From contig CAAEDD010000197.1 in the NCBI GenBank assembly GCA_900754515.1, positions 1-58,299 of the forward strand: DNA of 58,299 nucleotides, read 5' to 3'. The notes under the pieces were generated by a model that ran no database searches, was not told the DNA's origin, and was given only the letters and a program-made list of their open reading frames with translations. Of this stretch, positions 2,227 through 20,890 are shown in pieces. The translations under genes and the position numbers were made by a program. The stretch's first letter is position 1; each line of letters begins with the position of its first letter. The stretch comes from an uncultured Oscillospiraceae bacterium (GTDB taxonomy: Bacteria; Bacillota; Clostridia; Oscillospirales; Oscillospiraceae).

Positions 2227-2228
2227 GC

Positions 2229-3775: not shown

Positions 3776-4405
3776 TCAAAGCTTTTCCGATAACTCCCTG
3801 AGCAGTCTCTCGGCTTTATCCGTATTGAATATACCGCAGGCACAGGGTTCAGACAGCTTTACTGCCGCTTTTCTCGGCGTAGTAATACCCTTGCGGATAT
3901 CTTCAATCATCTTATTGACCAGATTTGCAGATACCATGGCATGGCCGCACATGGTGGTAATCTCAAGCACACTTTCCGGCGGCAGTTTCGACGTGTCTCC
4001 CCATATGCCAAGGGTCAGGTCCACACTGTGCCGCTGAATTCCAGAACTTTTGGCACAGCAGTCCACATCATCCACCAGTCCGGATACTACCACAGAATAC
4101 CCATAGTCAGCCTCTTTGAGGGCCTTCATAACTTCGATAAGGGTATCCCTGTCTTTGTACACCGCATGGAGCATGGGTGCATCCTCAGACACATTTTCCA
4201 TTAGTTCCTCAAAACTGTTGGTGACAAGAGTGCCTATCTTCAGTCCGCCCATATTTACCGGATTAAAGGAATACAGCAACTTCATATACTTTCTGTACAC
4301 GTTTACGCAGTCTTGATTGTTAATGCCTCTGGCCGGCATTATAAGTACCACGTAGTCATCCGTTTTCCCTGACTCTGTTTTTATGCGATGAAGGGTATGC
4401 GACAT
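3776..4405 (-). CDS. Unassigned Cys/His-motif protein (module copy 1, small partner)
   Basis: 209 aa starting MSHTLHR. Blocks shared with the paralog at 19413-20045: LKEAD.G.S.VVSGL, a CC pair, LG[IV]WG, TTMCGH[AG]M and C-x-C-x-IFNT. Its ATG overlaps the upstream stop (TAATG). Confidence 0.7.
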   Translation of the reverse strand: MSHTLHRIKTESGKTDDYVVLIMPARGINNQDCVNVYRKYMKLLYSFNPVNMGGLKIGTLVTNSFEELMENVSEDAPMLHAVYKDRDTLIEVMKALKEADYGYSVVVSGLVDDVDCCAKSSGIQRHSVDLTLGIWGDTSKLPPESVLEITTMCGHAMVSANLVNKMIEDIRKGITTPRKAAVKLSEPCACGIFNTDKAERLLRELSEKL

Positions 4406-5154
4406 TAAACTCCCTCCTTTACTCTTTCCTCATATCTGGGCCTTCCCAGTCCCAAATTCGTCTTTGCAGAGGTTCTGTCTACATTGATACCCAGCTCATC
4501 CACAATAGCCCTAGCGGGTATGGTATCCGTATCCTCGTCAACACGGCAGATTATGCACAGACTGAATACCGTGTTTACTTCATGTGACACCTTTTCGAGA
4601 GCTTCCAACACGGCTCTTATTCTGTCGGTGGGACAGGTAAACTCTATAATACCAGACAGTATGCGTTCGCCCAGCACCGATGGATCCAACTTTCCCGTCT
4701 TTTTATCTACGATTAGGGATGTGACAGGGTTGTTCTCCTCAAATTTCAAAGCAAAGGGAGCAACTGCCATTGCCACCTTTTCCAGATCCGCAAAGGAAGA
4801 TGTCACGCTGGGCCTACCCATCTCTACTGCAAAAGACACGTAGTCCAAGCTATGTACTACACCGGTCACGTCGTTTGTCTTGACCTCCTCAGTGCCACGT
4901 CCCATATGTTTTTGAACAGTATTCTCATGCTTTCCAAAAGGATCGCTGAAAGCCTGTCTGTACACTCTTGGGGGTGACAGCTTGACATTATATATGGCGT
5001 CTCTGGGACATTTGGCACAGGTTCTGCATACACCGCACTCCACACACAGCTCCAGCTCAATGGTAATAGCCCCATCTTTTTCCTTTATCGCTCCGCAGGG
5101 ACAATACGGTATGCATTTTCTGCATCTAATGCATTTGCTCTCGTCTATATACAT
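4405..5154 (-). CDS. 2x[4Fe-4S] ferredoxin-domain protein with an unassigned ~170-aa C-terminal domain (module copy 1, large partner)
   Basis: N-terminal motifs CIRCRKCIPYCP and CVECGVCRTCAKCP. Then conserved blocks GRGTEEVKTNDVT and EMGRP shared with the paralog at 20050-20760. Confidence 0.8.
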   Translation of the reverse strand: MYIDESKCIRCRKCIPYCPCGAIKEKDGAITIELELCVECGVCRTCAKCPRDAIYNVKLSPPRVYRQAFSDPFGKHENTVQKHMGRGTEEVKTNDVTGVVHSLDYVSFAVEMGRPSVTSSFADLEKVAMAVAPFALKFEENNPVTSLIVDKKTGKLDPSVLGERILSGIIEFTCPTDRIRAVLEALEKVSHEVNTVFSLCIICRVDEDTDTIPARAIVDELGINVDRTSAKTNLGLGRPRYEERVKEGV

Positions 5155-5177
5155 CCTGTTCTCCTATACCTAGTAGT

Positions 5178-6080
5178 TTATTTGCATATGGCTTTTAGGA
5201 CAGCGTAACGCTCATCCACCTGCCGCTGGATATCGTCCAGCTGCTTACGGCTGAGTTTTCTGAACTTTCCAATGTCGGTTGTAAACTCCTGTACCGATAT
5301 GGGCGCATTGTTTATATAATTGAGTTTAAAGCCATCACTGTCTTTTTCCCATAGCGGGAACATATTTGATCTTACAGCCTTCTTGGATATCTGTATTGTT
5401 TGATCCTGCGGAAAGCTCCAGCCGGTCGGGCAGGGGCTGAACACGTGGAGATAAGCAAAACCCCGCTTGCTGGCCGCCAGTCCTTTCTGCACTTTCTCTA
5501 CAAAGTCTTTCATATATCCAGGCGTAGCCGCAGCACAGTATTCGATGCCATGCATAGCCATAATCAACGGCAGATATTTCTGCCCCTGCTGCTTTCCTGA
5601 GATACGGCTGCCCAGAGGAGTGGTGGAGGTTCGGGACCCCTCTGTAGTGGTGGAGCTGCGCTGATAACCGGTGTTCATGTAACCTTCGTTGTCATAGCAG
5701 ACATACAGCATTTTTTCTCCTCGCTCAGCTGCTCCGGACAGGCTTTGGAAACCGCAATCGGCAGTGGCCCCGTCTCCGGCAACCGCAACAATATTTACAT
5801 CCCCCCGGCCATAACGTTCATATATATGGCTTATCCCAGTCATAAAGGATGCAGTATTATCCAGCAACGGAATATGTACAGGTATTTTCATTCCGCTATC
5901 GTAGCTCCATCCCACGACTCCACTACCTGCCATACAGCCTGGGGGTACACAGACAATAGTATTCTCGCCCGCTATTTGCAGCACTCTGCGTAAAACCAGT
6001 TCTCCTCCGCAGCCCTGACATGCAGATATGCCCGGTGATACCATGTCAGCACGGTCTCTTATTATATCGATGTAACTCAT
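5178..6080 (-). CDS. 2-oxoacid:ferredoxin oxidoreductase, beta (TPP-binding) subunit
   Basis: CQGCGG near the N-terminus and the TPP-binding motif GDGATADCGFQSL...NEGYMNTG. Last of four adjacent OFOR subunit genes. Confidence 0.9.
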   Translation of the reverse strand: MSYIDIIRDRADMVSPGISACQGCGGELVLRRVLQIAGENTIVCVPPGCMAGSGVVGWSYDSGMKIPVHIPLLDNTASFMTGISHIYERYGRGDVNIVAVAGDGATADCGFQSLSGAAERGEKMLYVCYDNEGYMNTGYQRSSTTTEGSRTSTTPLGSRISGKQQGQKYLPLIMAMHGIEYCAAATPGYMKDFVEKVQKGLAASKRGFAYLHVFSPCPTGWSFPQDQTIQISKKAVRSNMFPLWEKDSDGFKLNYINNAPISVQEFTTDIGKFRKLSRKQLDDIQRQVDERYAVLKAICK

Positions 6081-6081
6081 T

Positions 6082-7275
6082 TTACGCCCCTTCCTGCTCT
6101 TTCATTAGCCAGCGTGTCTCCTTCTCACCTGGAAAACCTTTAACGCTGTCCAGATACATGAGAGTATCCGTCAGATCTTTTACGGATATGTCTGCTCCGC
6201 CTAGGCCGCCGATAGTTGAAAAGCTGGCCTGCTTCTCTCCCAGACTTGAAATGGCCGACAAAGTCTCCACATACATGGATCCCTTTCCCCAGCCAAAGCT
6301 GACACTGCGATCCACCACAGTAAAGGCTTTCTTTCCTCTCAGTACCTGAGCTATCCTCTCGCTGGGGAACGGGCGGTAGAAACGTATTCTTACAAGCCCT
6401 GCTTTCACGCCCTGTGCTCTGACAATATCAACAGCATCCTTTCCTGCTCCTGTCATACCGCCCATTGTAACAATAACTACCTCTGCGTCTTCGCAAAGGT
6501 ACTCCTCTATCATGCCGCCATAAGAGCGGCCGAACACTGAGGCAAATTTCCCGTCAACTTCGTCTATAACCTGTTTCGCCCTCTCCATGGCATTCAGGTG
6601 GCTTTTGCGGTAGTGCATCAGCAGTTCGCCCGGAGTCATCGGATCCAGAGCCAGAGGATGCCTTGGATCCAGAATCGCCTGGTGATAAATACCATGGGCA
6701 GGCAGAACGTCATCCACTTCCTCCTGATCCGGAATTACTACGCCGGATGTCAGGTGTGAGCTGTAGAAGCCGTCATAGCAGACATTTACAGGCAGGCATA
6801 CCTCCGGATGTTCCGCTATCATATAGCCCTGTATTATCATGTCAACGATCTCCTGATTGTCGTCGCAGAACATCTGTATCCAACCAGCCTCCCGTACGGA
6901 GATGGCATCCTGTTGGCCGCTCCAAATGGTCTCCGGTGAGGTCATCTCTCTCGTTGCTATAGCCATCACCATAGGCAGGCGCAGTGTAGACATACGAAAA
7001 TATGGCTCATACATCAGTGCAAGGCCCTGGGCGCTGGTGGCAGTAAACACCCTGCCCCCGGCAGCAGCCGCTCCCTGCACAACGCTCATCGCACTATGCT
7101 CCGACTCAACCTGAACCATTTCCGAGTCTATCTCACCATTGTGTACTTTCTCTGCCAGATACTCCACTACAGATGACTGAGGGGTGATTGGATATGCGGA
7201 AATGAGATCAATGCGGCACCTTGCCGCCGCTTCGGCAGCCGCATAGTTGCCTGTCAGCACTTTCAGGCTTCCCAT
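6082..7275 (-). CDS. 2-oxoacid:ferredoxin oxidoreductase, alpha subunit
   Basis: The N-terminus LTGNYAAAEAAARCRIDLISAYPITPQS is typical of the PorA/VorA/KorA family. It ends 1 nt before the beta-subunit start. Confidence 0.9.
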   Translation of the reverse strand: MGSLKVLTGNYAAAEAAARCRIDLISAYPITPQSSVVEYLAEKVHNGEIDSEMVQVESEHSAMSVVQGAAAAGGRVFTATSAQGLALMYEPYFRMSTLRLPMVMAIATREMTSPETIWSGQQDAISVREAGWIQMFCDDNQEIVDMIIQGYMIAEHPEVCLPVNVCYDGFYSSHLTSGVVIPDQEEVDDVLPAHGIYHQAILDPRHPLALDPMTPGELLMHYRKSHLNAMERAKQVIDEVDGKFASVFGRSYGGMIEEYLCEDAEVVIVTMGGMTGAGKDAVDIVRAQGVKAGLVRIRFYRPFPSERIAQVLRGKKAFTVVDRSVSFGWGKGSMYVETLSAISSLGEKQASFSTIGGLGGADISVKDLTDTLMYLDSVKGFPGEKETRWLMKEQEGA

Positions 7276-7278
7276 GAC

Positions 7279-7542
7279 TTATTTCTCCTCCTTTATCATT
7301 GAGATGGCCTTTCTGGGGCATTCAACCGCACAGATACCGCATCCTTTGCAGTATGTATAATCTATATAATATCCCTGCCCTTCAGAATAGCGGGGGGAAT
7401 TTACCGGGCAGTAACTCAGACATATGCCGCAATTTGTGCACTTAGTCTTGTCTATCACCGGTCTGTATACCCGCCAGCTCGCAGTGTCAAGGACATACAT
7501 TCCCCTATTTCCAACAGGGGTCACAAATTCACGATCATACAT
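7279..7542 (-). CDS. 2-oxoacid:ferredoxin oxidoreductase, delta (2x[4Fe-4S]) subunit
   Basis: 87 aa with CTNCGICLSYCP and CKGCGICAVECP. Confidence 0.9.
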   Translation of the reverse strand: MYDREFVTPVGNRGMYVLDTASWRVYRPVIDKTKCTNCGICLSYCPVNSPRYSEGQGYYIDYTYCKGCGICAVECPRKAISMIKEEK

Positions 7543-8089
7543 TTTCTTTCCCTCCCCTCAGATAATTAACACTTTCGTAGGCTCTCTGCGCTGCCAACCG
7601 GTTGTCAGTGCCGAATTTATTCTCTATCTCCTCAAATAGCAGCTCTCTGTCCACCAGTCCCACAGTTCTGGCAAAAGCCCCCAGCATGGCTGTATTTGGC
7701 AGATTTTTCCCTAAAATATCCTCCGCAATGCCGCTGGCATCCACTGTCGCTACTATTCCGGCGCAATCGGGAACCATAAGCTCTTCCAAATTATGTACGC
7801 TGTTTATCAGCACCATTCCGCCTTTCTTTAAGCCAGAATATGTCTCCTTCATACCAACCAAAGTATCGTCCATGATAACTATTATGTCCGGCTCGTATAT
7901 CTGGGTCTTACGTCTGATTTGAGTTTCGCTCAGGCGAAGATAGCCGTACACCGGTGACCCCTTTCTTTCTACGCCAAAAAACGGAATAAATTGGCCGTGT
8001 ATCCCGCCCATTACGGCAGCCTTCACGATCATCTGAGAGGCTTTGACAACTCCCTGCCCGCCTCTGCCGTGCAACCGGATTTCTTTCAT
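7535..8089 (-). CDS. 2-oxoacid:ferredoxin oxidoreductase, gamma subunit
   Basis: MKEIRLHGRGGQGVV is a typical gamma-subunit start. The start is moved to the ATG at 8089, which has the RBS AAGGAG 6 nt upstream. It overlaps the delta gene by 8 nt. Confidence 0.9.
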   Translation of the reverse strand: MKEIRLHGRGGQGVVKASQMIVKAAVMGGIHGQFIPFFGVERKGSPVYGYLRLSETQIRRKTQIYEPDIIVIMDDTLVGMKETYSGLKKGGMVLINSVHNLEELMVPDCAGIVATVDASGIAEDILGKNLPNTAMLGAFARTVGLVDRELLFEEIENKFGTDNRLAAQRAYESVNYLRGGKENV

Positions 8090-8146
8090 TGTCTTCTCCT
8101 TTATACCCTTTGTTAACGCAGCCAATTACATATAGTCTGCAATTAT

Positions 8147-9700
8147 CTACAGCATTTTTCCTGCCTGGAAAATGCGTTTATCCATTTCACGTAGTTCCGG
8201 GGATATCTCAGGTCTGAAGTCCATACATGCAAGGATATCTTTTTCCAGGTTCACTCCCGGAGCAATCTCTGTCAGCACAAGGCCGGCATCACCCAAAGTA
8301 AACACCGCCCGCTCAGTTATATACATTACCTTCTGTCGCTTTTTACGGGCCTGCCAGCTTGAAAATGTTATCTGTTCTACGCGTTTTCGAAATTTTCTGC
8401 TCTTTCCTTCTGAGCATATTCTGAGCTTCCCATCCACGACCTCAGTCTCAAGGCCGGAAGCAGTAAAGGTACTCATAAAACAGACAACCGGGCTGCTTTG
8501 CACGATATTGATAAATCCTCCTGGACCCGTGGTGCGTTTTCCAAAGCGCGATACATTTACATTTCCCTGTTCGTCTATCTCTCCCGCGCCGAGGAAGGAC
8601 ATGTCCAGACCTCCCCCGTCATAAAAATTGAAGTTGTCTTCAAGTCTATATATTACTTGTGGATTCACCGCAGCTCCAAATCCGGGGCCGCTCACAGGTA
8701 CGCCGCCCAGGGGACCGCTCTCTACTGAAAGCAGCAGCTGTGAGAATATTCCCTCCTCGGCCGCAACTGTCGCCACAGCTTCAGGTATGCCAATACCAAG
8801 ATTTACAACATTTCCGCGCTGCAGTTCGAGCACAGCTCGTCTGCCACAAATTTTTCTGTTATTAAGCGGCATTGGCTTAAAAGCATCGGTTTCTTTGATT
8901 GCATACCCACAGAGTTCCGGCCGAAATGCCGGACAATCATAGCCCGGTGTACACTGACCGTCCAAGTCTAAAACAATAAAATCCACAAGGCTGTTGTGCA
9001 AAAGTATATCCCTTGGGGAAAGCTTTCCTTCAGCAAGCCGGTCAACCTGGGCTATTACTATACCCCCACAGGCTTTCACAGCAAGAGCCATTTCTAGCTG
9101 TTCAGCTGTCATCGGGTCATCTCTGGCTGATAGATTTCCGTCGCTGTCAGCAGTTCCTATGCGCATTATGCAGGCATCCAGGGTAGGAGTCCTGTACAGC
9201 AAATATTCCTTTCCGTCCAGCTCTGTCAGTTCTGCGACCTTGCCGCCTGACCGGGCAGCCAAATTGTTCAGAGCGCCGCCTTCCACACGCGGATCACAAA
9301 AGCTTCCAAGTCCCACAGGGCTTATAACCGCGGGCTTTCCTGAGGCCGCTGCGTGCAGGAGATCAGTAACAAGTCCCAGGGGCAGGGCAAAGGCCCGCAT
9401 TCGGTTTTCGGCTATCATTTTCCCGAAGCTGAGAGCCATACCCACATGGGCAGCCCTGACCTCGGATATCAACCCATCCATTGCCAGGATATTCATGCCC
9501 CTGCTGCCTGTTGTAAGGTCTCCTGGCAATATGCCCGAAAACACGCTGAGATTTCGCGGTCTTCCTGTTCTTTCATATCTCCGGGCTATCGCGTGAAAAA
9601 TGATGTCCGCACCAAGCCATCCGCCAAAACCGCATATGCCAACAGACATACCGTCGTGAAAAAGCTCCGCAGCCTTCTCAGCATCAATAAACTGAGCCAT
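8147..9700 (-). CDS. Family I acyl-CoA:acetate/propionate CoA-transferase (Pct/YdiF type, fused subunits)
   Basis: 517 aa, alignable from memory with C. propionicum Pct: ...SVESGPLGGVP (ESG catalytic-Glu motif), FYDGGGLD, GNVNVSRFG, GGFINI, YITERAVF. Confidence 0.85.
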   Translation of the reverse strand: MAQFIDAEKAAELFHDGMSVGICGFGGWLGADIIFHAIARRYERTGRPRNLSVFSGILPGDLTTGSRGMNILAMDGLISEVRAAHVGMALSFGKMIAENRMRAFALPLGLVTDLLHAAASGKPAVISPVGLGSFCDPRVEGGALNNLAARSGGKVAELTELDGKEYLLYRTPTLDACIMRIGTADSDGNLSARDDPMTAEQLEMALAVKACGGIVIAQVDRLAEGKLSPRDILLHNSLVDFIVLDLDGQCTPGYDCPAFRPELCGYAIKETDAFKPMPLNNRKICGRRAVLELQRGNVVNLGIGIPEAVATVAAEEGIFSQLLLSVESGPLGGVPVSGPGFGAAVNPQVIYRLEDNFNFYDGGGLDMSFLGAGEIDEQGNVNVSRFGKRTTGPGGFINIVQSSPVVCFMSTFTASGLETEVVDGKLRICSEGKSRKFRKRVEQITFSSWQARKKRQKVMYITERAVFTLGDAGLVLTEIAPGVNLEKDILACMDFRPEISPELREMDKRIFQAGKML

Positions 9701-9732
9701 AGGATTTCCCCTTTATTCCGGCATTGTTTAAA

Positions 9733-10785
9733 CTATAAAACATATACTACTAAATAGAAAATTTGAGGAAAGAGCAAAACCACACTCATCAGTCTGAACA
9801 TTTGCAGTAACGCCAGAGCCGGGCTGTTAATTCCCATATCCGCAGCTATAAAACTCATTTCTACTGCCCCTGCCGGGGCGAGAAACAGCATTGCTTCTTT
9901 AAAACGGAATTTAAATACCTTGCTTATCATATATCCGCCAAAAATACAAAGCAGAAGATATCCGGCGCAAAGTATTCCCGCCGGCAAGATTAGCTGCGGT
10001 AAATTTCTAATTTGTTCAGGCCCCACCCTTATTCCAATGCAGCAACCGCATAGAACCTGGGCAGCATTTCGAAGCCAGTCCGGCATAGCCCCTGCTTTCC
10101 CATATATATTCAGCATTGCCACCGCCAGCATGGAAAAGGATATGGTTCCTGCTGCTACACCGCTTATGCGTCCAAGGAGTCCGGCTGCACTTCCTATACA
10201 TAGAGCCGGTATGTATGGAATAAAAGCGGTTCTGTGTGTTTTTCCCATTGCTTTTAGCGCAGTGCTTTCTTCTTTTGCAACTCTTGCAGCGCCACCTTTT
10301 CCGCTCTTGTCTGCCAGGCAGATAAGCCAAGGCAAACAGCCAAGGCCAAAAATAACCCGTATGAATTGCAGTATAGTCACCGCAGCCACATCTGCGCCCA
10401 TGTCCATAGCTATAAGGGGTGCATCAGATATCCCTCCGGGCATGGCACTGAACAGGCAGCTTATCAGGCTCAGCTGCGTTAAATTACTTATAAGTAATGC
10501 CGCTCCAATGTTTAAGGCCAGAAAACCAAAAAATATCACTACAAACGGCCCTGTTATTCTTGGCAGAAGGCGCAGCTCGTCTTTTGTAATCATGCCTCCC
10601 AGATATGCACCTGAAATAATCTGTGACAGCACGCGGGCCTGAGGCCATACATTTGCCTTGCCGCTGGCAATATTCAACGCCGCCACGGCAACTACGGCCC
10701 CCAGCAGCAGTCCCGCCGGGACTCTGATTTTTTGAAACAGCAGGCCACCGAGCAACGCTGCAGCCATCGTAATCGCTATCCACAT
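9733..10785 (-). CDS. AbrB-duplication family polytopic membrane protein (putative transporter)
   Basis: About 350 aa and very hydrophobic, with two internally similar halves (GG.L...I..P.G.LLG / AAG.LG.....AG). The start is taken at the ATG at 10785, because the ORF-track start is TTG. Confidence 0.65.
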   Translation of the reverse strand: MWIAITMAAALLGGLLFQKIRVPAGLLLGAVVAVAALNIASGKANVWPQARVLSQIISGAYLGGMITKDELRLLPRITGPFVVIFFGFLALNIGAALLISNLTQLSLISCLFSAMPGGISDAPLIAMDMGADVAAVTILQFIRVIFGLGCLPWLICLADKSGKGGAARVAKEESTALKAMGKTHRTAFIPYIPALCIGSAAGLLGRISGVAAGTISFSMLAVAMLNIYGKAGAMPDWLRNAAQVLCGCCIGIRVGPEQIRNLPQLILPAGILCAGYLLLCIFGGYMISKVFKFRFKEAMLFLAPAGAVEMSFIAADMGINSPALALLQMFRLMSVVLLFPQIFYLVVYVL

Positions 10786-10949
10786 AATATCTGACCTCAA
10801 CGCGCGGTTTTCTCCATTGGGACAACTTGCTGCACAACCAAATCAGCAAAAAATCTGTTGCTTACGGCCGGTACATTCAACCGAAACGCCACATATTTTG
10901 GCAAACAGTATTTGCTGTTTTTTCCCCATGGAATTCCGTCTGTAATATT

Positions 10950-12873: not shown

Positions 12874-12914
12874 ATAATTTCACCTACCAATTGAATAGTG
12901 AAGTCTGGAGGCGC

Positions 12915-14285
12915 TTAATCCAGATACTCATGGAAAATATTGGCCATGAGCTTTATAGCCGTCAGATATTGTTCTATACTTATGTTTTCATCTGGAGCAT
13001 GGGTGTTGGCCGTAGAGAAGGGTGCGCCCAAACCGATAATGAATACATCTCCGCCTAAATACTGGGGGAACATGCACATGGGCCCGGAACCATCCAGCAG
13101 CGGCCACACCACAGGAGCCCGACCATACACCTTGGTTGCCAGCCTGGCAGACAGTTTGACAAGCTCATGGTTCGGAGAACACTGGTATGGCTCATTATTT
13201 GCTTTTACCTTTACATCGAAGTGGCCAAATGGTGACTTTTCAATAAAATCGATCAGCTTTTCCTTGGCCTGGGCTATGCTCATTCCTTTGACCAAACGCA
13301 TGTCCAGGCGCACCCAGGCTTCGCACGGAACTATTGTCTTTCCTCGTTCTCCTGCCCATCCACCCTTTATGCCGGATATATTGCAGGTTGGAGTATAGAT
13401 GAGCCTTTTTATGACCTCAACCGGATCGTCGCTTCCTCCAAGTATTTCAGGTATGGCATACTCTTTCTTAAACTGCTCCAGATCATAGGGAATATCCCGT
13501 ATCAGATTCAGTTCCTCTTCCGAGGGAGCTTTCACATTGTCGGTATAGCCGTCTATAGTAATTTCATCCAGAGTGTTTTGCATGGAGTTAAGCAAACGTA
13601 CCAGATCCCAGATGGCATTTGGTATCAGCGGAGCATGACCAGAATGGACATCCCTTTTAGCGCGTTTACAGGAAATTTCCACTTCCATAAGTCCTTTGTT
13701 GCCAAGGTAAAATTGTGGACGTCCGCTTTCATGCACACCTCTGTCGCACAGCAGGCAAGCATCACTGCTCAGCACATCTGAGTATGTAGAAAAGAATTTT
13801 GCCAGATTAGGACTGCCAATCTCCTCTTCACCTTCAAAGAAAAACTTCAGCCCGGCAGGAATCTTGCCCGTCACATTTTTCAGCACTTCCGCCGCCTTTA
13901 TATTTGCCCAGAGATTGCCCTTGTCGTCAGTAGCCCCTCTGGCATAAATCATCCCGTCTCGTATCTCGGCTGAAAAAGGATCTGAAGTCCACCTGTCTAC
14001 CGGGTCCGGAGACTGTACATCGTAGTGACCGTAGACCACCAACTGCTTATTTGCTCTTTCTGTTTTGGAGACGCCGTATATTGCCGGAAAAGCACCTTCC
14101 AATTCCAGGATTCTGTGATCCATCCCCAGTGTTTTTAGCTCCCTGCTCAGCATATCGGTGCATTCTTCCATTCCGATATTCTCTGTGGATATGCTTGGCT
14201 GCCTCAAGAAATTCTGCAGGCTGGATACCAATTCATCGGCATGGGAATCTACATAGTCCGAAATCTGTTTCATCAATTCACTCAT
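12915..14285 (-). CDS. M20-family metallopeptidase (dipeptidase, CNDP/DUG1-like), copy 1
   Basis: VYGHYDVQSPDPVDRWTSDPF...IYARGATDDKG and FFEGEEEIGS metal-ligand blocks. Paralog of the adjacent gene. Confidence 0.85.
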   Translation of the reverse strand: MSELMKQISDYVDSHADELVSSLQNFLRQPSISTENIGMEECTDMLSRELKTLGMDHRILELEGAFPAIYGVSKTERANKQLVVYGHYDVQSPDPVDRWTSDPFSAEIRDGMIYARGATDDKGNLWANIKAAEVLKNVTGKIPAGLKFFFEGEEEIGSPNLAKFFSTYSDVLSSDACLLCDRGVHESGRPQFYLGNKGLMEVEISCKRAKRDVHSGHAPLIPNAIWDLVRLLNSMQNTLDEITIDGYTDNVKAPSEEELNLIRDIPYDLEQFKKEYAIPEILGGSDDPVEVIKRLIYTPTCNISGIKGGWAGERGKTIVPCEAWVRLDMRLVKGMSIAQAKEKLIDFIEKSPFGHFDVKVKANNEPYQCSPNHELVKLSARLATKVYGRAPVVWPLLDGSGPMCMFPQYLGGDVFIIGLGAPFSTANTHAPDENISIEQYLTAIKLMANIFHEYLD

Positions 14286-14344
14286 GGATTTTCTCCCTTC
14301 TTTGTCCTTGAATCTGCGCTCTGTTCAAGCACAGTGCCACAATG

Positions 14345-15700
14345 TCAGTTCCCGGTCTTACCCATCTCTTGAATAAGAGCAGCGGCAGTGCGTATTCCGT
14401 TATAATACCCGGAAACAGTCATACATTCATTGGGAGAGTGGTTGTTCTGGTTAAAGGGTGCAAAAGGTATAACTGCACTGGGTATCTTCAACACATCCTG
14501 AAATATATAATTGGGGCCCGCTCCACCTATATTGGGGAATATAATGGGATCCTCTCCCCAGGCCAGACGGATGGCCCTGGCCATAACAGGCACATACTCA
14601 TTATCAATGGGAGTGCGAGATGGCTTCAGTGAGCCGAAGCTGACGACCTCTGCATCCTCAAAGCCATTTTTGACAAGGTGCTTCTTTATTTTGTCAATGA
14701 TATCCTCTGGAGTCTGATCAGGTACAAGACGGAAATCAATTTTGACAGTAACCTCATTGGGAATAATTGTTTTTGATCCCGGTCCCTGATATCCGCCGTA
14801 AAGACCAGCAATGCTGCTGGATGGTTCAAAAATCAGGTTGTAGTAATAGTCATCTCCTGTACGGTTCATAAGGAAGTGGTCTATGCCAAGATCGTTCAAG
14901 ATTTCTTCCCTGTCTACAGGAATTTTCTTTATTGCTTCTTTCTCCAGTGGGAGCAATGGCCTTACCGTATCGTAAAACCCCTCTACTTTAATAAATCCAT
15001 CCTCCCCCCGGATGCTGTTCAAAAGACTGACCATCCGCCACATAGGACTTGGAATAACCCCGCCCTTCATGGAGTGAACATCACGATTCGCACCATGCAG
15101 GGTTATCTGAAGATATACCAAACCCTTGAGTCCCAATATGAGCATGGGCTTGCCCGTCTCATGTACATGGCTGTCTGACATCACGACCAAATCGCCTTTT
15201 AGCAGTTCCTTATTTTCGGAGCAAAACGGCTCCAAATTTGGACTGCCTATCTCTTCTTCTCCCTCAAAAAGATATTTAATGTTTATAGGCAGCTTTCCAT
15301 AGGTCTTAAGATAAGCCTCGACTCCCTTTACATGGGCAAAAAGCTGAGATTTATTGTCTGACACTCCGCGGGCATAAATATATCCGTCTCTTATTTCTGG
15401 CTCAAATGGGTCGCTGTCCCAGAGTTCATAGGGCTCCGGTGGCTGTACGTCATAATGGCCGTAAATTATAAGTGTCGGAAGCTGCTGGTCGGTAATAATC
15501 TCACCATAGACAACTGGATGGCGGGCAGTCGGATATATGATAGTCTTTATCCCCGCATCCTCCATCATATCCCTCAGCAGGGATGCGCATTGGGACACCC
15601 CGTCATCCTGTGCGCTTATACTTCTGCAGCGCAGGAATTTAAACAGGTCGTCCATAAACCGTTCTTCATTGTCATGAATGTATTGAAACACTCTCTCCAT
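14345..15700 (-). CDS. M20-family metallopeptidase (dipeptidase, CNDP/DUG1-like), copy 2
   Basis: IYGHYDVQPPEPYELWDSDPF...IYARGVSDNKS and LFEGEEEIGS. Confidence 0.85.
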   Translation of the reverse strand: MERVFQYIHDNEERFMDDLFKFLRCRSISAQDDGVSQCASLLRDMMEDAGIKTIIYPTARHPVVYGEIITDQQLPTLIIYGHYDVQPPEPYELWDSDPFEPEIRDGYIYARGVSDNKSQLFAHVKGVEAYLKTYGKLPINIKYLFEGEEEIGSPNLEPFCSENKELLKGDLVVMSDSHVHETGKPMLILGLKGLVYLQITLHGANRDVHSMKGGVIPSPMWRMVSLLNSIRGEDGFIKVEGFYDTVRPLLPLEKEAIKKIPVDREEILNDLGIDHFLMNRTGDDYYYNLIFEPSSSIAGLYGGYQGPGSKTIIPNEVTVKIDFRLVPDQTPEDIIDKIKKHLVKNGFEDAEVVSFGSLKPSRTPIDNEYVPVMARAIRLAWGEDPIIFPNIGGAGPNYIFQDVLKIPSAVIPFAPFNQNNHSPNECMTVSGYYNGIRTAAALIQEMGKTGN

Positions 15701-15737
15701 TTTTTACCTCCCATTGGATCCGCATCTTGTTCCGGCT

Positions 15738-16679
15738 TCAGTCTTTCATCTTCGGATCCAGCACATCTCTAAGCCCATCTCCCAGCAGGTTGAGTCCAAG
15801 AACCAGGAACAATATGGCAAGGCCGGTAATTGTAGTTACATGAGGTGCCGTCAGCAAATATTGGCGGCCGGTACTGAGCATTGCGCCCCACTCAGGCGTG
15901 GGAGGCTGGGCGCCTATGCCAAGGAATCCCAAACCCGAAGTGGTAAGAATGGCATTACCAAAGCTCAGAGTAGCAAGGATTATCATAGGTGCAACAATAT
16001 TCACCAGAATATGCTTAAAAATAATACGAATATGACCTGAGCCCAAAGCTCTGGCAGCTTCAATAAATTCACTGTTTCTGAGAGCAAGTGTCTCGCCTCT
16101 GGCTGTTCGGGCAAAGTTTGGCACTGTATATATGCCAACCGATAAAATGGCATTATCCAGATCCTGACCAAGTATGCTCACAAAGAGTATGGCCAGCAGT
16201 ATACCCGGAAAGGCCATAAGTACGTCCATAGCTCTCATCAGCAGCGCGTCAATTTTCCCTCCAAAGTATCCGGCACATATTCCTATGGGAGTACCGATAA
16301 TAAAGGCCACACCAACTGCCACAACGCCAACCCGCATAGAAATTCGTGCTCCGTAGATAATTCGGCTGAGCAGATCTCGTCCTGTCTCATCGGTACCGAG
16401 CAGATGCTCTGCGCTCGGCCCCTGGAGTTTGTTTGCCAGATCCTGCTTTGTAGGATCATAAGGAGCCAGCACATCGGCAAAAATAGCCATAAAAATATAT
16501 AGCAAAACAATAATAAGACCAAGTACAGCAATCTTTCTCTTTGTAAAGCTGTGCCACATACGTCTGAGCTGATTGGAGGCAACTACTTCATTATCATCAT
16601 CTATCTGATTATAGCCGGCATCAATGATAGTGACCTGATTGGGGTCTGGATACAACCCGGCTTTTTTTTGCTCACTCAT
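15738..16679 (-). CDS. Oligo/dipeptide ABC transporter permease (OppC/DppC type)
   Basis: Six-TM BPD permease with LGTDETGRDLLSR and the EAA-like block EFIEAARALG. Confidence 0.9.
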   Translation of the reverse strand: MSEQKKAGLYPDPNQVTIIDAGYNQIDDDNEVVASNQLRRMWHSFTKRKIAVLGLIIVLLYIFMAIFADVLAPYDPTKQDLANKLQGPSAEHLLGTDETGRDLLSRIIYGARISMRVGVVAVGVAFIIGTPIGICAGYFGGKIDALLMRAMDVLMAFPGILLAILFVSILGQDLDNAILSVGIYTVPNFARTARGETLALRNSEFIEAARALGSGHIRIIFKHILVNIVAPMIILATLSFGNAILTTSGLGFLGIGAQPPTPEWGAMLSTGRQYLLTAPHVTTITGLAILFLVLGLNLLGDGLRDVLDPKMKD

Positions 16680-16693
16680 ATCTGCTTCCTCCT

Positions 16694-17614
16694 TTAGCTC
16701 AGCTTTATGCGCGGATTAATAAATGCATACAATATGTCTACCAGCAAATTTATCAGCACAAACATGCTGGCCAGAACAAGTATGGTCGACTGTACTACGG
16801 GAAAATCTCTGGCGCGTATGGCCGTAACCACCAAACTGCCAAGTCCGGGCCAACCAAACACCTGCTCCGTGATGACAGCACCGCCCAGCAGGGAACCGAA
16901 CTGAAGTCCGGCAACGGTAACGATAGTATTCATGGAATTCTTCAGAGCTTGTCCAAAAATAACCTTACGTTCGCTAAACCCCTGAGCCCGGGCAGTCTGA
17001 ATATAGTCCTGGCTCATGACCTCCAGCATGCTGGAGCGCGTCATTCTTGCAATAGTTGCCATGCTACGTGCGCTGAGGGTTATAGCAGGCAATATTATGC
17101 CTGCAAGGGTAACACCGCCGGATATTGGCAGCCACTTGAGCATGACGCTAAATATAAGCATCAGCATCAGGCCAAGGTAAAAAGGTGGTATAGACAATCC
17201 GAACAATGCAAAGAGCATGCTGAAATTGTCAAATACGCTGTAACGTTTTGTGGCAGAAACTATGCCGATGGAAATTCCAACCACAATGGATATGAGTATT
17301 GCTGCAGCGGCCAATATCAAAGTGTTTGGCAAACGGGACATTATTTCTTCTGAAACTGGGCGATTAGTACGTATGGAAGTGCCCATATCCCCCTTTAAAA
17401 CATTGGTAATATACCGAAAATACTGTTCAGGCAAGGGCCTGTCAAAACCCTGGGCGACCCGGACGCGCTCAATGTCCGCCTCTGTTGCGGCCTCGCCGGC
17501 AATGATCTTTGCTGGGTCTCCTGGCATCAGATGAACCATCATAAACACCAAAATGGAAACTACCAGTAAGACCGGGATCATGGTTGCAAGTCTTCTGAAT
17601 ATAAATTTGACCAT
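16694..17614 (-). CDS. Oligo/dipeptide ABC transporter permease (OppB/DppB type)
   Basis: MVKFIFRRL..PGDP N-terminus and DYIQTARAQG EAA motif. Confidence 0.9.
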   Translation of the reverse strand: MVKFIFRRLATMIPVLLVVSILVFMMVHLMPGDPAKIIAGEAATEADIERVRVAQGFDRPLPEQYFRYITNVLKGDMGTSIRTNRPVSEEIMSRLPNTLILAAAAILISIVVGISIGIVSATKRYSVFDNFSMLFALFGLSIPPFYLGLMLMLIFSVMLKWLPISGGVTLAGIILPAITLSARSMATIARMTRSSMLEVMSQDYIQTARAQGFSERKVIFGQALKNSMNTIVTVAGLQFGSLLGGAVITEQVFGWPGLGSLVVTAIRARDFPVVQSTILVLASMFVLINLLVDILYAFINPRIKLS

Positions 17615-17693
17615 TTTTTCACCCCGTGATTTTTCTGTAGACGGCGGGCAGCTTCAGCCGGTTTCCCATCCGCATTCGCGCCGTTGACAAAAG

Positions 17694-17726
17694 GCGGCCT
17701 GACAAATTATGTTTTTGCCAGGCCGC
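17694..17726 (-). terminator. Possible intra-operon attenuating hairpin after the binding-protein gene
   Basis: 8-bp stem GCGGCCTG / CAGGCCGC with a 17-nt loop. On the minus strand it is followed by CTTTTGT. It lies in the 164-nt gap between the binding-protein and permease genes. Confidence 0.35.
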
Positions 17727-17778
17727 TGGAATTTCTACCTTGATTGATTATTCAATGACCTGTATTTAATGCTGCCGC

Positions 17779-19323
17779 TCATGTGCGTGCAAGATATCTG
17801 AGGTCTATCATTTCGTTGGGGAAGATCACGAAACCAGATACATCAGATGCACAGCCAAAGGTCTGCTTCTCGTAGTAAAGGACAGCCTGGGGGCAATCGT
17901 CATTGATCTTCTTCTGGATATCGTAGAGTATCTTCTCTCGGACTGCGGAATCAGTGGTCTGGCGCTGTTCAATGAGCCACTCATCTACCTGTGGATCAGA
18001 ATACTGGGTATTATTCATGCCCTTGCCCGTGCCAAAGCAGAGATCCAGAGTGTAGTCCGGGTCACCGGAGGGGCTGCCTTTGCCCAAAAGGAACAGCTGG
18101 GTTTCAGTGCCTTCGGTGGTCATTGTGGAGTAAGCACCCCATTCCACTACCTGCAGCTCAGCGTTAATACCCACTTCAGCCAACATTGACTGACATACCT
18201 CCGCCACCATGCGGTCCATGGGATATCTTCCCTCACAAGTATGGAATACTATGTCCAGTCCATCCTCATATCCAGCCTCTTTAAGCAGTTCCTTGGACTT
18301 TTCAGGATTATAGGTGTAGGGATCCAAATCCTGAGCAGAATATGGGATAACAGTAGACTCTATGCCCGAAGGATACTGGGCGTAACCTTCAAGAACGTGG
18401 TCGATAATGGACTGCTTATCTATGGCATAAGCCACAGCCTGGCGCACTCTTACATCGTCAAAGGGGGCTCTGGATGTGTTCATGCCCAGATAAATGGTAC
18501 GGTAGCCGGTCTCAACCTGGACGGTCACGTTGGGGTCGGACTCAATCTGAGAGATCTGCGCCGCTGCAACAGGGGCAACATCCGCATCTCCGGACTGAAG
18601 CATCATGACCCTTGAGGAGTCTTCAGCCACAAATTTGAATGTAAGATTGTCAATAGTAGATTTTTCTCCCCAGTATCCGTCATACTTGGTCATAACCAAA
18701 GAACTGCCGGGTACCCACTCTTTTATCATCAGCGCACCGGTGCCGCAAGGGTGGAGCGAAATATCCGTGCCATACTCTTCCAGTGCAGTAGGGCTCATCA
18801 TGCTGAGGTTATAATTGGAAATCTGTCCCAGCATGGGGCCATAGGGCTCATCAGTGCTCAAGGCAACTTCATATTCGCTGATGACCTCAACTTTTGTTAT
18901 CATGTCTACAGTGGAAGCTCTCGGTGAGCCCACAGAGGGATCCTGAAGCCGTTCGATATTGTACTTCACAGCTTCAGCATTAAAAGGTGTGCCGTCATGG
19001 AAGGTTACTCCCTCGCGAAGTTTAAAAGTCCAAGTAAGCTCGTCTTCAGAGGTAGTCCAACTCTCAGCTAGCCAAGGCTCAATAGTGGTGCCCACGTTGC
19101 GAACCAAGGTTTCATAAATCTGAACATTGGCTCTAGCAGTATTGACGTCGGTAATAAAATGTACGTCAAAGGTTGTGGGCTCAGTGCCAACAGCAAAGAC
19201 AAAATCGTTGCTTCCTACAGATGCGGCTCCCGAGTCTCCGGAAGGTGTGGAATTTGCGCCGCAGCCTGCCAGCAGTACTGCCATAAGGGCAATTGCAAGC
19301 AATCTTTTCACGGTTTTTTTCAT
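17779..19323 (-). CDS. Peptide ABC transporter substrate-binding lipoprotein (family 5, OppA/DppA type)
   Basis: Lipobox LLAGC after a signal peptide. 514 aa with family-5 SBP blocks (TFKLREGVTFHDGTPFNA). Confidence 0.9.
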   Translation of the reverse strand: MKKTVKRLLAIALMAVLLAGCGANSTPSGDSGAASVGSNDFVFAVGTEPTTFDVHFITDVNTARANVQIYETLVRNVGTTIEPWLAESWTTSEDELTWTFKLREGVTFHDGTPFNAEAVKYNIERLQDPSVGSPRASTVDMITKVEVISEYEVALSTDEPYGPMLGQISNYNLSMMSPTALEEYGTDISLHPCGTGALMIKEWVPGSSLVMTKYDGYWGEKSTIDNLTFKFVAEDSSRVMMLQSGDADVAPVAAAQISQIESDPNVTVQVETGYRTIYLGMNTSRAPFDDVRVRQAVAYAIDKQSIIDHVLEGYAQYPSGIESTVIPYSAQDLDPYTYNPEKSKELLKEAGYEDGLDIVFHTCEGRYPMDRMVAEVCQSMLAEVGINAELQVVEWGAYSTMTTEGTETQLFLLGKGSPSGDPDYTLDLCFGTGKGMNNTQYSDPQVDEWLIEQRQTTDSAVREKILYDIQKKINDDCPQAVLYYEKQTFGCASDVSGFVIFPNEMIDLRYLART

Positions 19324-19412
19324 GTTATTTCTCCTTTCTTTTCTTTACAGTTTTCTAAACAGCCTTAATCCGCTGGAAAACTTCATATGTTTGAGTCCGC
19401 CGCTTTGCCGGG

Positions 19413-20045
19413 TCAGTCCATGGCGATTTCTGCAAGAATACGAGCAGCACGCTCAGTATTGAATATATGACAATGGCACTGGGGCATTATCTTTTCTGCT
19501 GCCTGTTCAGCAGTCATCTTTCCTGCTTTTATCTTTCTTACCATGTCTTCCACGAGAGTAAAGGGGATCATTCCATGTCCGCACATAGTAGTCACATCCG
19601 CAACTCTCGAGTCTGCTGGCATCTTCTCTTCCACATTACCCCAGACTCCCAGCGAAGTGTTAACAGTATGAGGCTCCAGTCCAGCCTCCCGGCAGCATTT
19701 GTGCACCGTGTCAAAAAGTCCGGACACCACAATTGATATGCCTAAATCTGCTTCCTTAAGTTCCTTGAGGCAGGCAACCAGATCTTCTTCGCTTCTGAAT
19801 ACGGCATGTGTTACTCCGTTATCTGATACAACTTTCAGTGCCTCATCCACACGCTCCATTGTCAGTGGTCCGTCCATGCCAAGTATCCCTGCATTAACTA
19901 CATTGTGTTTAAGGAATATCTCGCCAATCTTAACTAATTCCTTAGCACAGCCATCACGGTTATACCCCTTTGCGCCTATAGCAAGAATTGGAAAATCATT
20001 TTTGAGGCTATCGACCGAGCCGCTCCGATGTAAAGTATGCGACAT
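19413..20045 (-). CDS. Unassigned Cys/His-motif protein (module copy 2, small partner)
   Basis: Starts MSHTLHR at the ATG at 20045, with AAGGAG 7 nt upstream inside the end of the preceding gene. It shares LKEADLGISIVVSGL, KCC, LGVWG, TTMCGHGM and CHCHIFNT with the 3776-4405 protein. Confidence 0.7.
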   Translation of the reverse strand: MSHTLHRSGSVDSLKNDFPILAIGAKGYNRDGCAKELVKIGEIFLKHNVVNAGILGMDGPLTMERVDEALKVVSDNGVTHAVFRSEEDLVACLKELKEADLGISIVVSGLFDTVHKCCREAGLEPHTVNTSLGVWGNVEEKMPADSRVADVTTMCGHGMIPFTLVEDMVRKIKAGKMTAEQAAEKIMPQCHCHIFNTERAARILAEIAMD

Positions 20046-20049
20046 GCTG

Positions 20050-20760
20050 TTACTCCTTTCTAGCCCGTCCAAGTCCAACGCAGGTCTTCCCGTTAGGACG
20101 ACGCTCTATCCCGGCTCGAGCCAAAAGTTTATCCGTTGGTATTTCTCCATCTCTCATGCGGCTTATGACATCCACGCTGAACACAGTGCTCACCTTTTTC
20201 TGTTCTTCCTTCAGGTCCATAAGCAGGCCAGGCAATTCTGACTCATCCAGCATTGCCTCAATAATAAAGGAAAGAGAACGTTCATTTTTAAACTCATCCT
20301 TTACTATGCCGGTATTACCTGGCTCGAAAACTATGGCAGAGGGATTTTCCTGCTCAAGCTGTGCACCGTGAGCGCAGATTACCCTGGCAATGGTTTCCAC
20401 ATCTTTAAAACTGGTGCCGGTTGCCGGCCTTCCCATCTCGCAGGCAAATCCAACTTTTCCCAGAGGAAAACGATTGGTAATATCGTTCGTCTTCATCTCT
20501 TCTGTACCCCGGCCCAGAATACCGGTATTTGGCGATTTCTCCCGGGCGTTGCTGAATATGGCTCTTATCATCCTGGGCATTACCATCGTCTGCTGAACTA
20601 TGGCATCTCTTGGACATACGCCTCCAAATTTACAGTTACCGCATTCAACGCACAAATCCAAGTCTATATATGCCTGCTTATTCTGAATGCTTATTGCCTT
20701 CATACCACAATAAGGTATGCATAGTCCGCAGCCAATGCATTTCCCCTGATCAATAACCAT
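20050..20760 (-). CDS. 2x[4Fe-4S] ferredoxin-domain protein with an unassigned C-terminal domain (module copy 2, large partner)
   Basis: CIGCGLCIPYC and CVECGNCKFGGVCP, then GRGTEEMKTNDIT and EMGRP. First gene of the 17-gene operon. Confidence 0.8.
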   Translation of the reverse strand: MVIDQGKCIGCGLCIPYCGMKAISIQNKQAYIDLDLCVECGNCKFGGVCPRDAIVQQTMVMPRMIRAIFSNAREKSPNTGILGRGTEEMKTNDITNRFPLGKVGFACEMGRPATGTSFKDVETIARVICAHGAQLEQENPSAIVFEPGNTGIVKDEFKNERSLSFIIEAMLDESELPGLLMDLKEEQKKVSTVFSVDVISRMRDGEIPTDKLLARAGIERRPNGKTCVGLGRARKE

Positions 20761-20890
20761 AGTTTCTCCCCTTCCTGTATCAAGTTTTCTGCCGTCGGAA
20801 TCGTTTTTCTTTTTCGCTTTAGGGTACTAAAGCAGTTTCAATAAAGAATCGCGGATCGTACCATATTTATTTATATTCTGAATAATAAAC

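Follow-up and report, generated by a model that had tools for sequence, protein, structure and literature searches.

Four-subunit 2-oxoacid:ferredoxin oxidoreductases (OFORs), such as the archaeal PorABCD and VorABCD enzymes (PDB entry 9bt4), and the phenylglyoxylate:NAD+ oxidoreductase PadEFGHI are built from a gamma-delta-alpha-beta set with a thiamine pyrophosphate (TPP) motif and a YPITP motif; in Pad, this core enzyme is further accompanied by an extra subunit, a flavin/Fe-S NAD+ reductase. Here we examine a 58,299-nt stretch of DNA (contig CAAEDD010000197.1; hereafter, the window) of an uncultured Oscillospiraceae bacterium, a member of Clostridia from chicken gut, in which an OFOR with this subunit set and both motifs lies in an array of 17 genes and, as in Pad, is accompanied by additional Fe-S protein. 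The accompanying genes form two copies (modules 1 and 2) of a pair that we call FdL and unkS. Unlike the extra subunit of Pad, neither FdL nor unkS has a flavin- or nucleotide-binding domain in Pfam. We propose, with about even confidence, that FdL/unkS is an enzyme of small-carboxylate conversion that is wired to ferredoxin, and that it works in a LysR-controlled catabolic array fused from three blocks.

Other parts of the array also have described counterparts. The CoA-transferase has the fused alpha-beta architecture and the catalytic Glu in common with E. coli YdiF and Pct-type family-I enzymes, and the ATP-binding cassette (ABC) importer and the two M20 hydrolases share domain sets and M20 motifs with Dpp/Gsi importers and M20A dipeptidases (CNDP2, Dug1 and Sso-CP2-like); the array differs from Dpp/Gsi systems, however, in that all specific equivalogs stay below cutoff and the genes for the permeases are separated from those for the ATPases by the peptidase genes. 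As a whole, the array would work like OFOR-based fermentative acid production with CoA recycling, which is the logic of branched-chain/aromatic amino-acid and hydroxyacid fermentations. Judged from their sequences, the OFOR, CoA-transferase, ABC importer, M20 hydrolases, LysR and AbrB proteins belong to known families at the family, not the substrate-specific, level, and FdL/unkS belongs to no described family.

The closest clusters are two sister types, namely CoAT-CitMHS-OFOR-F-S and the 2HCT type of Hungatella (in gene-order strings, F and S stand for FdL and unkS, and codes of the form Lnnn denote comparison loci). Both share with the array FdL/unkS, a four-subunit OFOR, a carrier and CoA recycling, but are without the ABC importer, the M20 genes and the second module; they have IclR rather than LysR and CitMHS or 2HCT rather than AbrB, and the Hungatella cluster uses a phosphotransacylase/kinase pair instead of the CoA-transferase. 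No experimental characterisation of the sister clusters was found in the literature searched, and literature searches yielded no description of the FdL/unkS pair, be it in work on the genomic context of carbon monoxide dehydrogenase (CODH) and hybrid cluster protein (HCP), on OFOR with 2HCT/butyrate kinase, or on aldehyde:ferredoxin oxidoreductase (AFOR) with LarA in Dehalococcoidia. A likeness to the lactate-utilisation complex LutABC/LldEFG is by analogy only, in that flavin-free 2x[4Fe-4S] and Cys-rich proteins there convert an imported 2-hydroxyacid to a 2-oxoacid. Lut-like genes do adjoin F-S in some genomes (LutC-like in L170; LutA-/LutB-like in L039 and L079). We rejected the idea that FdL/unkS is a divergent LutA/LutB/LutC or GlcF: hhalign against CCG, LUD and GlcF-like neighbours gave ≤47% probability, confined to the Fer4 motif, and neither CCG nor LUD domains were matched by Pfam in FdL or unkS.

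The FdL/unkS pair and its genomic company

Modules 1 and 2 are true paralogues (39-40% identity). For unkS, no match was found in Pfam even at E up to 10, in NCBIfam or among the sequences of the PDB; its AlphaFold2 (AF2) model for unkS1 is confident (predicted local distance difference test, pLDDT, 92), and Foldseek against the PDB returned no fold with E <0.001 (template-modelling score, TM, <0.3). The unkS residues invariant in at least one of two family alignments are H3, H6, R7, D17, N29, H80, H126, C153-G-H155, C188-x-C190 and N194, and the conserved His and Cys residues among them may constitute one or two metal sites. In FdL, the ferredoxin domain is followed by ~190 residues folding like tandem ACT-type units in the AF2 model of FdL1. 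This C-terminal domain has no match in Pfam (E up to 10) or NCBIfam, PDB sequence matches are limited to the ferredoxin domain, and Foldseek of the FdL1 model against the PDB gave ferredoxins and weak ACT-domain matches, none of which reached E <0.001 outside the ferredoxin domain. Apart from the cluster cysteines, a GRGTEExKT loop is invariant in FdL, as are a number of Arg, Lys and Glu residues.

The unkS family comprises 1569 matches in a 90%-clustered collection, which fall into 901 clusters at 50% identity, and it is present in >571 species-representative genomes; its hosts are Clostridia, Negativicutes, Desulfovibrio, Syntrophaceae, Nitrospirota, Dehalococcoidia, Anaerolineae, Acidobacteriota and Synergistota. 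Source names of the members are all “hypothetical”, “4Fe-4S binding protein” or alike. The closest matches among genome representatives (≤83%) come from uncultured Clostridiales, Oscillospiraceae, Christensenella and Ca. Scatomorpha. FdL lies directly upstream in 81 of the 95 unkS copies found in 79 species-level loci, with a median tblastn gap of 12 nt, and eight more copies are at contig ends; FdL and unkS form an obligate pair. Rare natural fusions were also noticed, in which unkS is joined to a C-terminal Fer4_11 (CooF-like) domain or a Fer4-like polyferredoxin (P0256 and P0251), which speaks for a role of unkS itself in electron transfer.

We then counted features within 6 kb of the module in the 79 loci. 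OFOR was present in 16 of them, AFOR in 11 and a Prismane protein of the HCP/CODH-like type in 15, mostly accompanied by CooF-like and FNOR proteins; overall, the module lies near such low-potential enzymes in 39/79 loci. A carboxylate carrier (CitMHS, 2HCT, TTT or TRAP) occurred in 29/79 loci, including 12 with a carrier but no OFOR, AFOR or HCP-like gene. The remaining recurrent neighbours, enzymes of 2-hydroxy- and 2-oxoacids that fit a substrate-converting role of the module, were LarA racemases, hydroxyacid oxidases of the GlcD/GlcF-like and LutA/LutB-like kinds, LutC-like proteins, PdxA-family dehydrogenases, the 3-hydroxyisobutyrate/tartronate-semialdehyde-reductase family, RraA-like aldolase/decarboxylase and AllF/AllG.

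In Negativicutes, Nitrospirota, Syntrophaceae and Acidobacteriota (L004, L027, L041, L046, L048, L080, L081 and others), F-S stands at the head of or inside a conserved operon with a sigma54 activator of the PrpR_N type, F-S, a CooF-like Fer4_11 protein, a 482-aa Prismane protein, an FNOR-like Pyr_redox_2 protein and a Zn-dependent alcohol dehydrogenase (Zn-ADH); in many cases AFOR is close by. F-S pairs in tandem, two or three in number, or extra copies of S are found in Dehalococcoidia and some Deltaproteobacteria (L043, L049, L051, L066, L067, L069, L075, L079 and L084), adjoining either LarA, an AP_endonuc_2 isomerase-like protein, two GlcD-like FAD oxidases and a GlcF-like Fe-S/CCG protein, or AFOR with LutA/LutB-like proteins. 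In L031, L076 and L171, F-S lies between or beside homologues of AllF (with an FdrA-like CoA-ligase domain) and AllG, the subunits named for oxamate carbamoyltransferase; this company hints at C2 oxo/amido-acid metabolism in some lineages.

Three blocks in one array

The sequence-only reading of the locus had regarded the array as a single self-contained route from an imported peptide to a short-chain acid, flanked by Fe-S modules. Its gene content has stood up well, as described below, and the comparison of the whole cluster that it called for shows the adjacency to be conserved: the full order, a LysR gene followed by F-S-SBP-Perm-Perm-M20-M20-ATP-ATP-AbrB-(CoAT)-OFOR-F-S (SBP, solute-binding protein; Perm, permease; ATP, ATPase; CoAT, CoA-transferase), recurs in L172, L173/174 and L177, where most proteins are 80-96% identical in amino acids to those of the window (AbrB, 56-66%; LysR, 54-83%). 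Recurrence of the block in at least three related lineages thus removes a fortuitous adjacency in one genome. The array does not, in contrast, behave as one unit outside this clade, since its three blocks occur separately in other genomes. Block 1 is LysR with module 2, block 2 is the Dpp-type ABC importer with two M20 genes, and block 3 is the carrier, the CoA-transferase, OFOR and module 1. As far as gene order and identity tell, the array is a lineage-specific fusion of these three, inherited as a block within the clade.

Given enough flank, close relatives of module 1 (about 61-83% identity) are always found with OFOR gamma-delta-alpha-beta and a secondary carboxylate carrier (CitMHS/2HCT), usually with an IclR gene and CoA recycling (CoA-transferase or PTB/BUK), and never with ABC or M20 genes. 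Gene order is permuted among lineages: CoAT-CitMHS-OFOR-F-S occurs in gut Oscillospiraceae, Christensenella and Ca. Scatomorpha, OFOR-CitMHS-F-S-CoAT in L175/176, and 2HCT-F-S-OFOR-BUK-PTB in Hungatella hathewayi and H. effluvii. Identity to the window is 61-69% for the module of Hungatella and only 28-41% for its OFOR. An OFOR block with its own carrier, and mostly without peptide genes, means that a peptide is not its necessary feedstock, contrary to what had been supposed. Close relatives of module 2 (62-78% identity), which in JGI metagenome contigs came from the same organism only and were found in the larger protein collection, form minimal operons divergent from a LysR gene, namely F-S-CitMHS, DctPQM-F-S, and DctPQM-F-S-F-S followed by the LutC-like gene of L170. 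The modules are therefore more than a flank; they are the most constant partners of OFOR and of LysR, and make up minimal operons with a carboxylate transporter. What the clusters have in common is the F-S pair together with a carboxylate carrier and a regulator of the substrate type; OFOR with CoA recycling is the most frequent partner downstream. Outside the clade, ABC and M20 genes accompany the module in an Acetomicrobium locus, in a different phylum, which has a Dpp-type ABC importer 44-62% identical to that of the window (SBP lowest, 44%), an M20 protein (54%) and then F-S-F-S; it also holds creatininase-family, PdxA-family and TctCBA genes.

The regulator bears the marks of a LysR-type protein, namely HTH_1 and LysR_substrate domains, a divergent gene and a candidate T-N11-A dyad upstream of the target promoter. 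The dyad ATAAGCTTTAGTTATA would lie ~63 nt upstream of the predicted transcription start of the array. Both dyad and promoter are conserved in the alignment of four lineages, even in L169, whose operon consists of F-S-CitMHS only, and the regulator hence seems to belong with the module rather than with peptide import. Divergent LysR genes accompany the module-2 relatives in L169-L173 as well; identity to LysR of the window is 31-34% in L169-L171 and 54-83% in L172-L174. Control by LysR, as originally suggested, is thus supported by a conserved box and promoter-like sequence upstream of the array, while it should be added that a promoter consensus scan overall gives no higher number of sites than in shuffled sequence. 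No Rfam match, and hence no riboswitch or T-box naming the substrate, was found in the whole window.

The OFOR of block 3 is of the four-subunit Por/Vor type with separate gamma, delta, alpha and beta proteins. Gamma passes TIGR02175 (175 bits; cutoff, 81) and delta passes TIGR02179 (91.8 bits; cutoff, 60). The top NCBIfam matches of alpha are PadG and archaeal PorA and those of beta are PadI, VorB and PorB, all below cutoff; in numbers, PadG scored 451 of the required 700 bits, PadI 375 of 700, PorA_Arch 416 of 550 and alpha of oxalate oxidoreductase (OOR) 282 of 500, and the Kor and Ior models gave <130 bits on the OFOR subunits. With all equivalog scores far below cutoff, substrate specificity is not transferable. 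Alpha has the motif SAYPITPQS and beta VAGDGATADCG...YDNEGYMNTG, of which YPITP is presumably the substrate-site motif and GDG...N the TPP motif, as in established structures of pyruvate:ferredoxin oxidoreductase (PFOR) and OOR. The closest structures to alpha are 9bt4 (four-subunit PFOR) and 5c4i (OOR). An oxalate-type enzyme was not favoured, given YPITP rather than YPIRP in alpha and a score well below cutoff. A further observation concerns 5667-5705 in the beta gene, where short contigs in all four metagenome runs match only these 39 nt and diverge on both sides; they are probably the conserved TPP-motif region of OFOR genes of other community members.

In the 517-aa CoA-transferase, the alpha and beta parts are fused. 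Its match to E. coli YdiF (2ahu) has an E value of 1e-112, and Glu327 in a VESGP motif aligns with Glu333 of YdiF, the catalytic residue on which the acyl-enzyme thioester is formed; the proposed passage from OFOR to CoA-transferase is sound. As to its acyl specificity, the top NCBIfam match, staphylococcal FadX, is far below cutoff. The AbrB-duplication protein passes TIGR03082 (191.8 bits; cutoff, 94.7), occupies the position of CitMHS/2HCT in the sister clusters and has a homologue (45% identity) that follows F-S-F-S in an unrelated metagenome contig (L158). PMC8396727 assigns the Pfam family PF05145 to the CPA/AT clan and models it after CitS, the citrate carrier, as a secondary carrier. 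Together, these points speak for AbrB as a candidate carrier, as had been suggested.

In block 2, the Dpp/Opp (PepT) importer is complete, with a family-5 binding protein, two BPD_transp_1 permeases, one of which has OppC_N, and two oligo_HPY ATPases. The binding protein best matches 5u4o, GsiB/YliB, HbpA and DppA in the PDB but scores below the NCBIfam equivalog cutoffs for GsiB, DppA, NikA, CntA and OppA, and the importer proteins are below those for DppB-F as well. Judging from the names of the PDB matches, family-5 binding proteins also take nickel, opines and sugars. With the binding protein below all specific cutoffs, its ligand is not assignable, and the earlier statement that the substrate cannot be read from the sequence holds for OFOR and binding protein alike. 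Between the permease and ATPase genes lie the two M20 genes. M20 a passes the NF005034 subfamily cutoff (409 vs 369 bits), and its best PDB matches are the Sso-CP2 carboxypeptidase (Sulfolobus CP2), CNDP2 and Dug1; both paralogues keep YGHYDVQ, ARG.(S/T)D.K and FEGEEEIGS, as M20A proteins do, and their HxD, D and EE are taken here to have the metal-binding and catalytic roles known from established M20 structures.

Layout, integrity and surroundings of the array

The array consists of 17 consecutive co-directional open reading frames (ORFs) on the minus strand, from 20760 to 3776, and the ORF of LysR is divergent from it (20973-21923, +). Positions and domain identities, summarized in Table 1, were confirmed by the ORF listing and by Pfam and NCBIfam scans.

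Table 1. Genes and non-coding elements of the array and its borders (window coordinates)
Feature	Position	Strand	Basis or remark
LysR-type regulator	20973..21923	+	HTH_1 and LysR_substrate domains
Candidate LysR site, T-N11-A-type dyad ATAAGCTTTAGTTATA	20931..20946	-	Invariant columns in four-lineage alignment incl. L169
Promoter-like TAGACA-17-TATTAT, within block conserved in related lineages	20882..20910	-	10/12 consensus matches
FdL2: N-terminal 2x[4Fe-4S] ferredoxin domain and uncharacterised domain of ~175 aa	20050..20760	-	Pfam/NCBIfam; 40% identity to FdL1
unkS2: 210-aa partner protein, no family	19413..20045 (corrected start)	-	Pfam/NCBIfam null; family N-terminus
Family-5 solute-binding lipoprotein (Dpp/Gsi/Nik-type)	17779..19323	-	SBP_bac_5, 2.5e-102; lipobox LLAGC
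13-bp GC-rich hairpin then CUUUUGUCA, 3' of binding-protein gene	17694..17726	-	-23.2 kcal/mol, z -4.7
ABC permease, DppB/GsiC-like	16694..17614	-	Pfam/NCBIfam
ABC permease, DppC/GsiD-like	15738..16679	-	Pfam/NCBIfam
M20A metallohydrolase a	14345..15700	-	Peptidase_M20 and M20_dimer
M20A metallohydrolase b, paralogue of a	12915..14285	-	Pfam/NCBIfam; 35% identity to a
ABC ATPase, OppD/DppD-like with oligo_HPY	11890..12873	-	Pfam/NCBIfam
ABC ATPase, OppF/DppF-like with oligo_HPY	10950..11897	-	Pfam/NCBIfam
AbrB-duplication membrane protein, putative carboxylate carrier	9733..10800 (likely start 10785)	-	TIGR03082
YdiF-type fused family-I CoA-transferase	8147..9700	-	CoA_trans domain
OFOR gamma subunit	7535..8125	-	POR domain; TIGR02175
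OFOR delta subunit, 2x[4Fe-4S]	7279..7542	-	TIGR02179
OFOR alpha subunit, YPITP motif	6082..7275	-	POR_N and PFOR_II
OFOR beta subunit, TPP-binding	5178..6080	-	TPP_enzyme_C
FdL1: 2x[4Fe-4S] domain and ACT-like domain	4405..5154	-	Pfam; AF2 model, pLDDT 86
unkS1: 209 aa, start overlaps FdL1 stop (ATGA)	3776..4405	-	AF2 model, pLDDT 92
15-bp GC hairpin between convergent histidine-kinase gene and array end	3574..3612		-45 kcal/mol, z -6.5

The genes had been described as joined by overlaps or short gaps, and this is the case at most junctions but not at three longer gaps (17615-17778 and 10786-10949, each of 164 nt, and 19324-19412 of 89 nt). The true start of unkS2 is the ATG at 20045, which gives the conserved N-terminus MSHTLHR and leaves a 4-nt spacer after FdL2 instead of an overlap. 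For AbrB, the ATG at 10785, with GAGG 9 nt upstream, is most likely the start. The hairpin at 17694..17726 is a candidate attenuator or mRNA stabiliser, and the one at 3574..3612 is terminator-like but without a clear U-tract. Contigs from independent chicken-gut metagenome runs cover the whole array with every junction, and an assembly chimera is thereby ruled out. Two runs labelled ‘METAGENOMIC RNA-Seq’ (X3 and X14) exhibit a DNA-like, flat contig depth over intergenic regions and both-strand genes (window 2200-22100) and are thus unfit as expression evidence; the only run covering the Hungatella operon (X25) is of low coverage and also DNA-like.

Together with its left flank, which encodes a LytTR response regulator and a GHKL histidine kinase, the array has a G+C content of 0.43-0.50 (window 1-22000), as compared with 0.53-0.57 for most of the rest, and this low G+C may mark a horizontally acquired island. 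In a contig of run X1, 280 bases are deleted at 2233-2514, inside the 5' part of the histidine-kinase gene (2229-3521); the length is not a multiple of three, so in that strain the sensor gene may be broken or re-started. A second low-G+C patch at 44000-48000 (0.40-0.44) contains an MBOAT-family acyltransferase (45199-46695) and a 462-aa protein without Pfam match (46707-48095), and two tandem CNNM/CBS/CorC-type paralogues, putative Mg2+/Co2+ efflux proteins, are encoded at 48228-50776 (-). At 8 kb from the array, there is a monomeric [FeFe]-hydrogenase with extra Fer4 domains (28110-29624, -), a plausible outlet for the ferredoxin reduced by OFOR.

A possible route, its rivals and their meaning

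With the pair and a transporter alone making a complete regulated operon, FdL/unkS is most simply an enzyme on the imported carboxylate, and the ferredoxin domain together with the company of low-potential enzymes indicates a reaction wired to the ferredoxin pool. Indeed, no aminotransferase or amino-acid dehydrogenase is encoded inside the array, as had been noted; the deamination step that seemed to be missing may not be missing at all, however, given that FdL/unkS is the best candidate for it from its context. An economical reading is that F-S produces the 2-oxoacid in OFOR clusters. In the window, module 2 heads an ABC importer and two hydrolases and not its usual carboxylate carrier, and this replacement suggests a substrate that comes in as a conjugate of the peptide-like or N-acyl type. 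The ABC system would take up a small conjugate of this kind for the M20 enzymes to cleave, and free carboxylate could also enter via AbrB. From the carboxylate set free, a small one of the 2-hydroxy, 2-amino or otherwise oxidised type, FdL/unkS would make a 2-oxoacid, which OFOR would convert to acyl-CoA, CO2 and reduced ferredoxin. The CoA-transferase would free the short-chain acid and recycle CoA, and reduced ferredoxin could unload its electrons on, for instance, the [FeFe]-hydrogenase mentioned above. LysR, travelling with module 2 across lineages, would probably sense the substrate or product of the module.

Several points weigh against this proposal. Low-potential ferredoxin is a thermodynamically unfavourable acceptor for the oxidation of 2-hydroxy- or 2-amino-acids, judging from established redox potentials; such an uphill oxidation makes a simple dehydrogenase role doubtful, and the actual chemistry may be an elimination, as in Fe-S dehydratases of serine or sugar acids, or else reductive. 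Neither Pfam, PDB sequences, Foldseek nor hhalign reveals homology to a characterised enzyme that would point to a specific reaction. Among 79 species-level and 80 metagenome loci, moreover, ABC/M20 genes lie beside the module only in the clade of the window and in the one Acetomicrobium locus, and the link between peptide import and OFOR would hence be young and adjacency-based. L172 has no CoA-transferase between AbrB and OFOR, the two 164-nt gaps are at or near block boundaries, and the runs labelled as RNA-Seq behave like DNA. Also, about half of the module contexts, with their low-potential enzymes, and the unkS-Fer4_11 fusion fit pure electron transfer equally well.

The last point leads to a reading we consider rather unlikely, in which the array is one self-contained peptide-to-acyl-CoA operon, housekeeping transaminases encoded elsewhere perform the deamination, and FdL/unkS are only ferredoxin-type carriers or outlets for OFOR. 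The 39 of 79 loci with enzymes making or using low-potential electrons (OFOR, AFOR or HCP/CODH-like), the fusion in P0256 and the canonical 2x[4Fe-4S] domain of FdL would all suit such carriers. OFOR already owns a ferredoxin subunit, delta, however, and a mere carrier accounts poorly for LysR-controlled minimal operons of a transporter with F-S, for the 12/79 loci that have a carboxylate carrier without any such redox enzyme, and for the large and strongly conserved non-ferredoxin parts of both proteins with invariant His, Cys and Arg; tandem F-S-F-S arrays, furthermore, resemble enzyme paralogues. Co-occurrence with three classes of oxygen-sensitive metalloenzyme could instead imply that FdL/unkS is a factor for maturation, repair or reductive activation of complex Fe-S/metallo-enzymes (OFOR, AFOR and HCP/CODH-like), and the His/Cys-rich unkS with its N-terminal His motif does resemble a metal-handling protein, by composition only. 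We regard this as highly improbable; the minimal operons of transporter and module are without any client enzyme, control by LysR/IclR is substrate-style and typical of catabolic genes, and no ATPase or chaperone domain was found with Pfam and NCBIfam.

The array could also be two or three independent operons placed head to tail, with a nutritional peptide importer and peptidases on the one hand and an unconnected carboxylate-to-acid OFOR pathway on the other. Separation of the blocks in most other genomes, the start of the OFOR block with its own carrier past a 164-nt gap and the strong hairpin 3' of the binding-protein gene are in line with this arrangement, which nonetheless appears improbable to us: at least three related lineages have all blocks in the order of the window, with 80-96% identity, the gap before AbrB contains neither a minus-strand promoter-like site (consensus scan of 10801-10949) nor a significant terminator structure (z -1.5 for 10786-10949), LysR and module 2 head the ABC block in place of the usual carboxylate carrier, and ABC, M20 and F-S genes co-occur independently in Acetomicrobium.

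We thus keep the proposal of a carboxylate enzyme wired to ferredoxin. More tentatively, and as a possibility well short of an even chance, FdL/unkS may represent a new class of ferredoxin-wired metalloenzyme that, needing no flavin, NAD or pyridoxal phosphate (PLP), interconverts 2-oxoacids with small imported carboxylates of the 2-hydroxy, 2-amino or oxidised kind. The structural side of that idea, drawn from predicted models, is held just as tentatively: unkS might have a new fold with His-rich and Cys3His sites, and the ferredoxin of FdL might carry an ACT-like ligand domain.

Short-chain and aromatic acids that reach the host are made by gut anaerobes from amino and hydroxy acids, and OFOR-based acid production is one of the main routes. 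Here OFOR is tied to a pair that no database describes and that mostly stands next to a carboxylate carrier or a low-potential oxidoreductase. Assigning the reaction of FdL/unkS would close a gap that recurs when the metabolism of gut, sediment and subsurface anaerobes is reconstructed; it could also reveal new Fe-S chemistry. The array in the window offers two paralogues under a defined regulator, and the cultivable Hungatella species offer a genetic handle. If FdL/unkS is indeed such a new class of metalloenzyme, it would supply the missing entry step for OFOR-based fermentations and would represent a widespread, unrecognised carboxylate node across anaerobes, from gut Clostridia and Desulfovibrio to Dehalococcoidia, Nitrospirota and Syntrophaceae.

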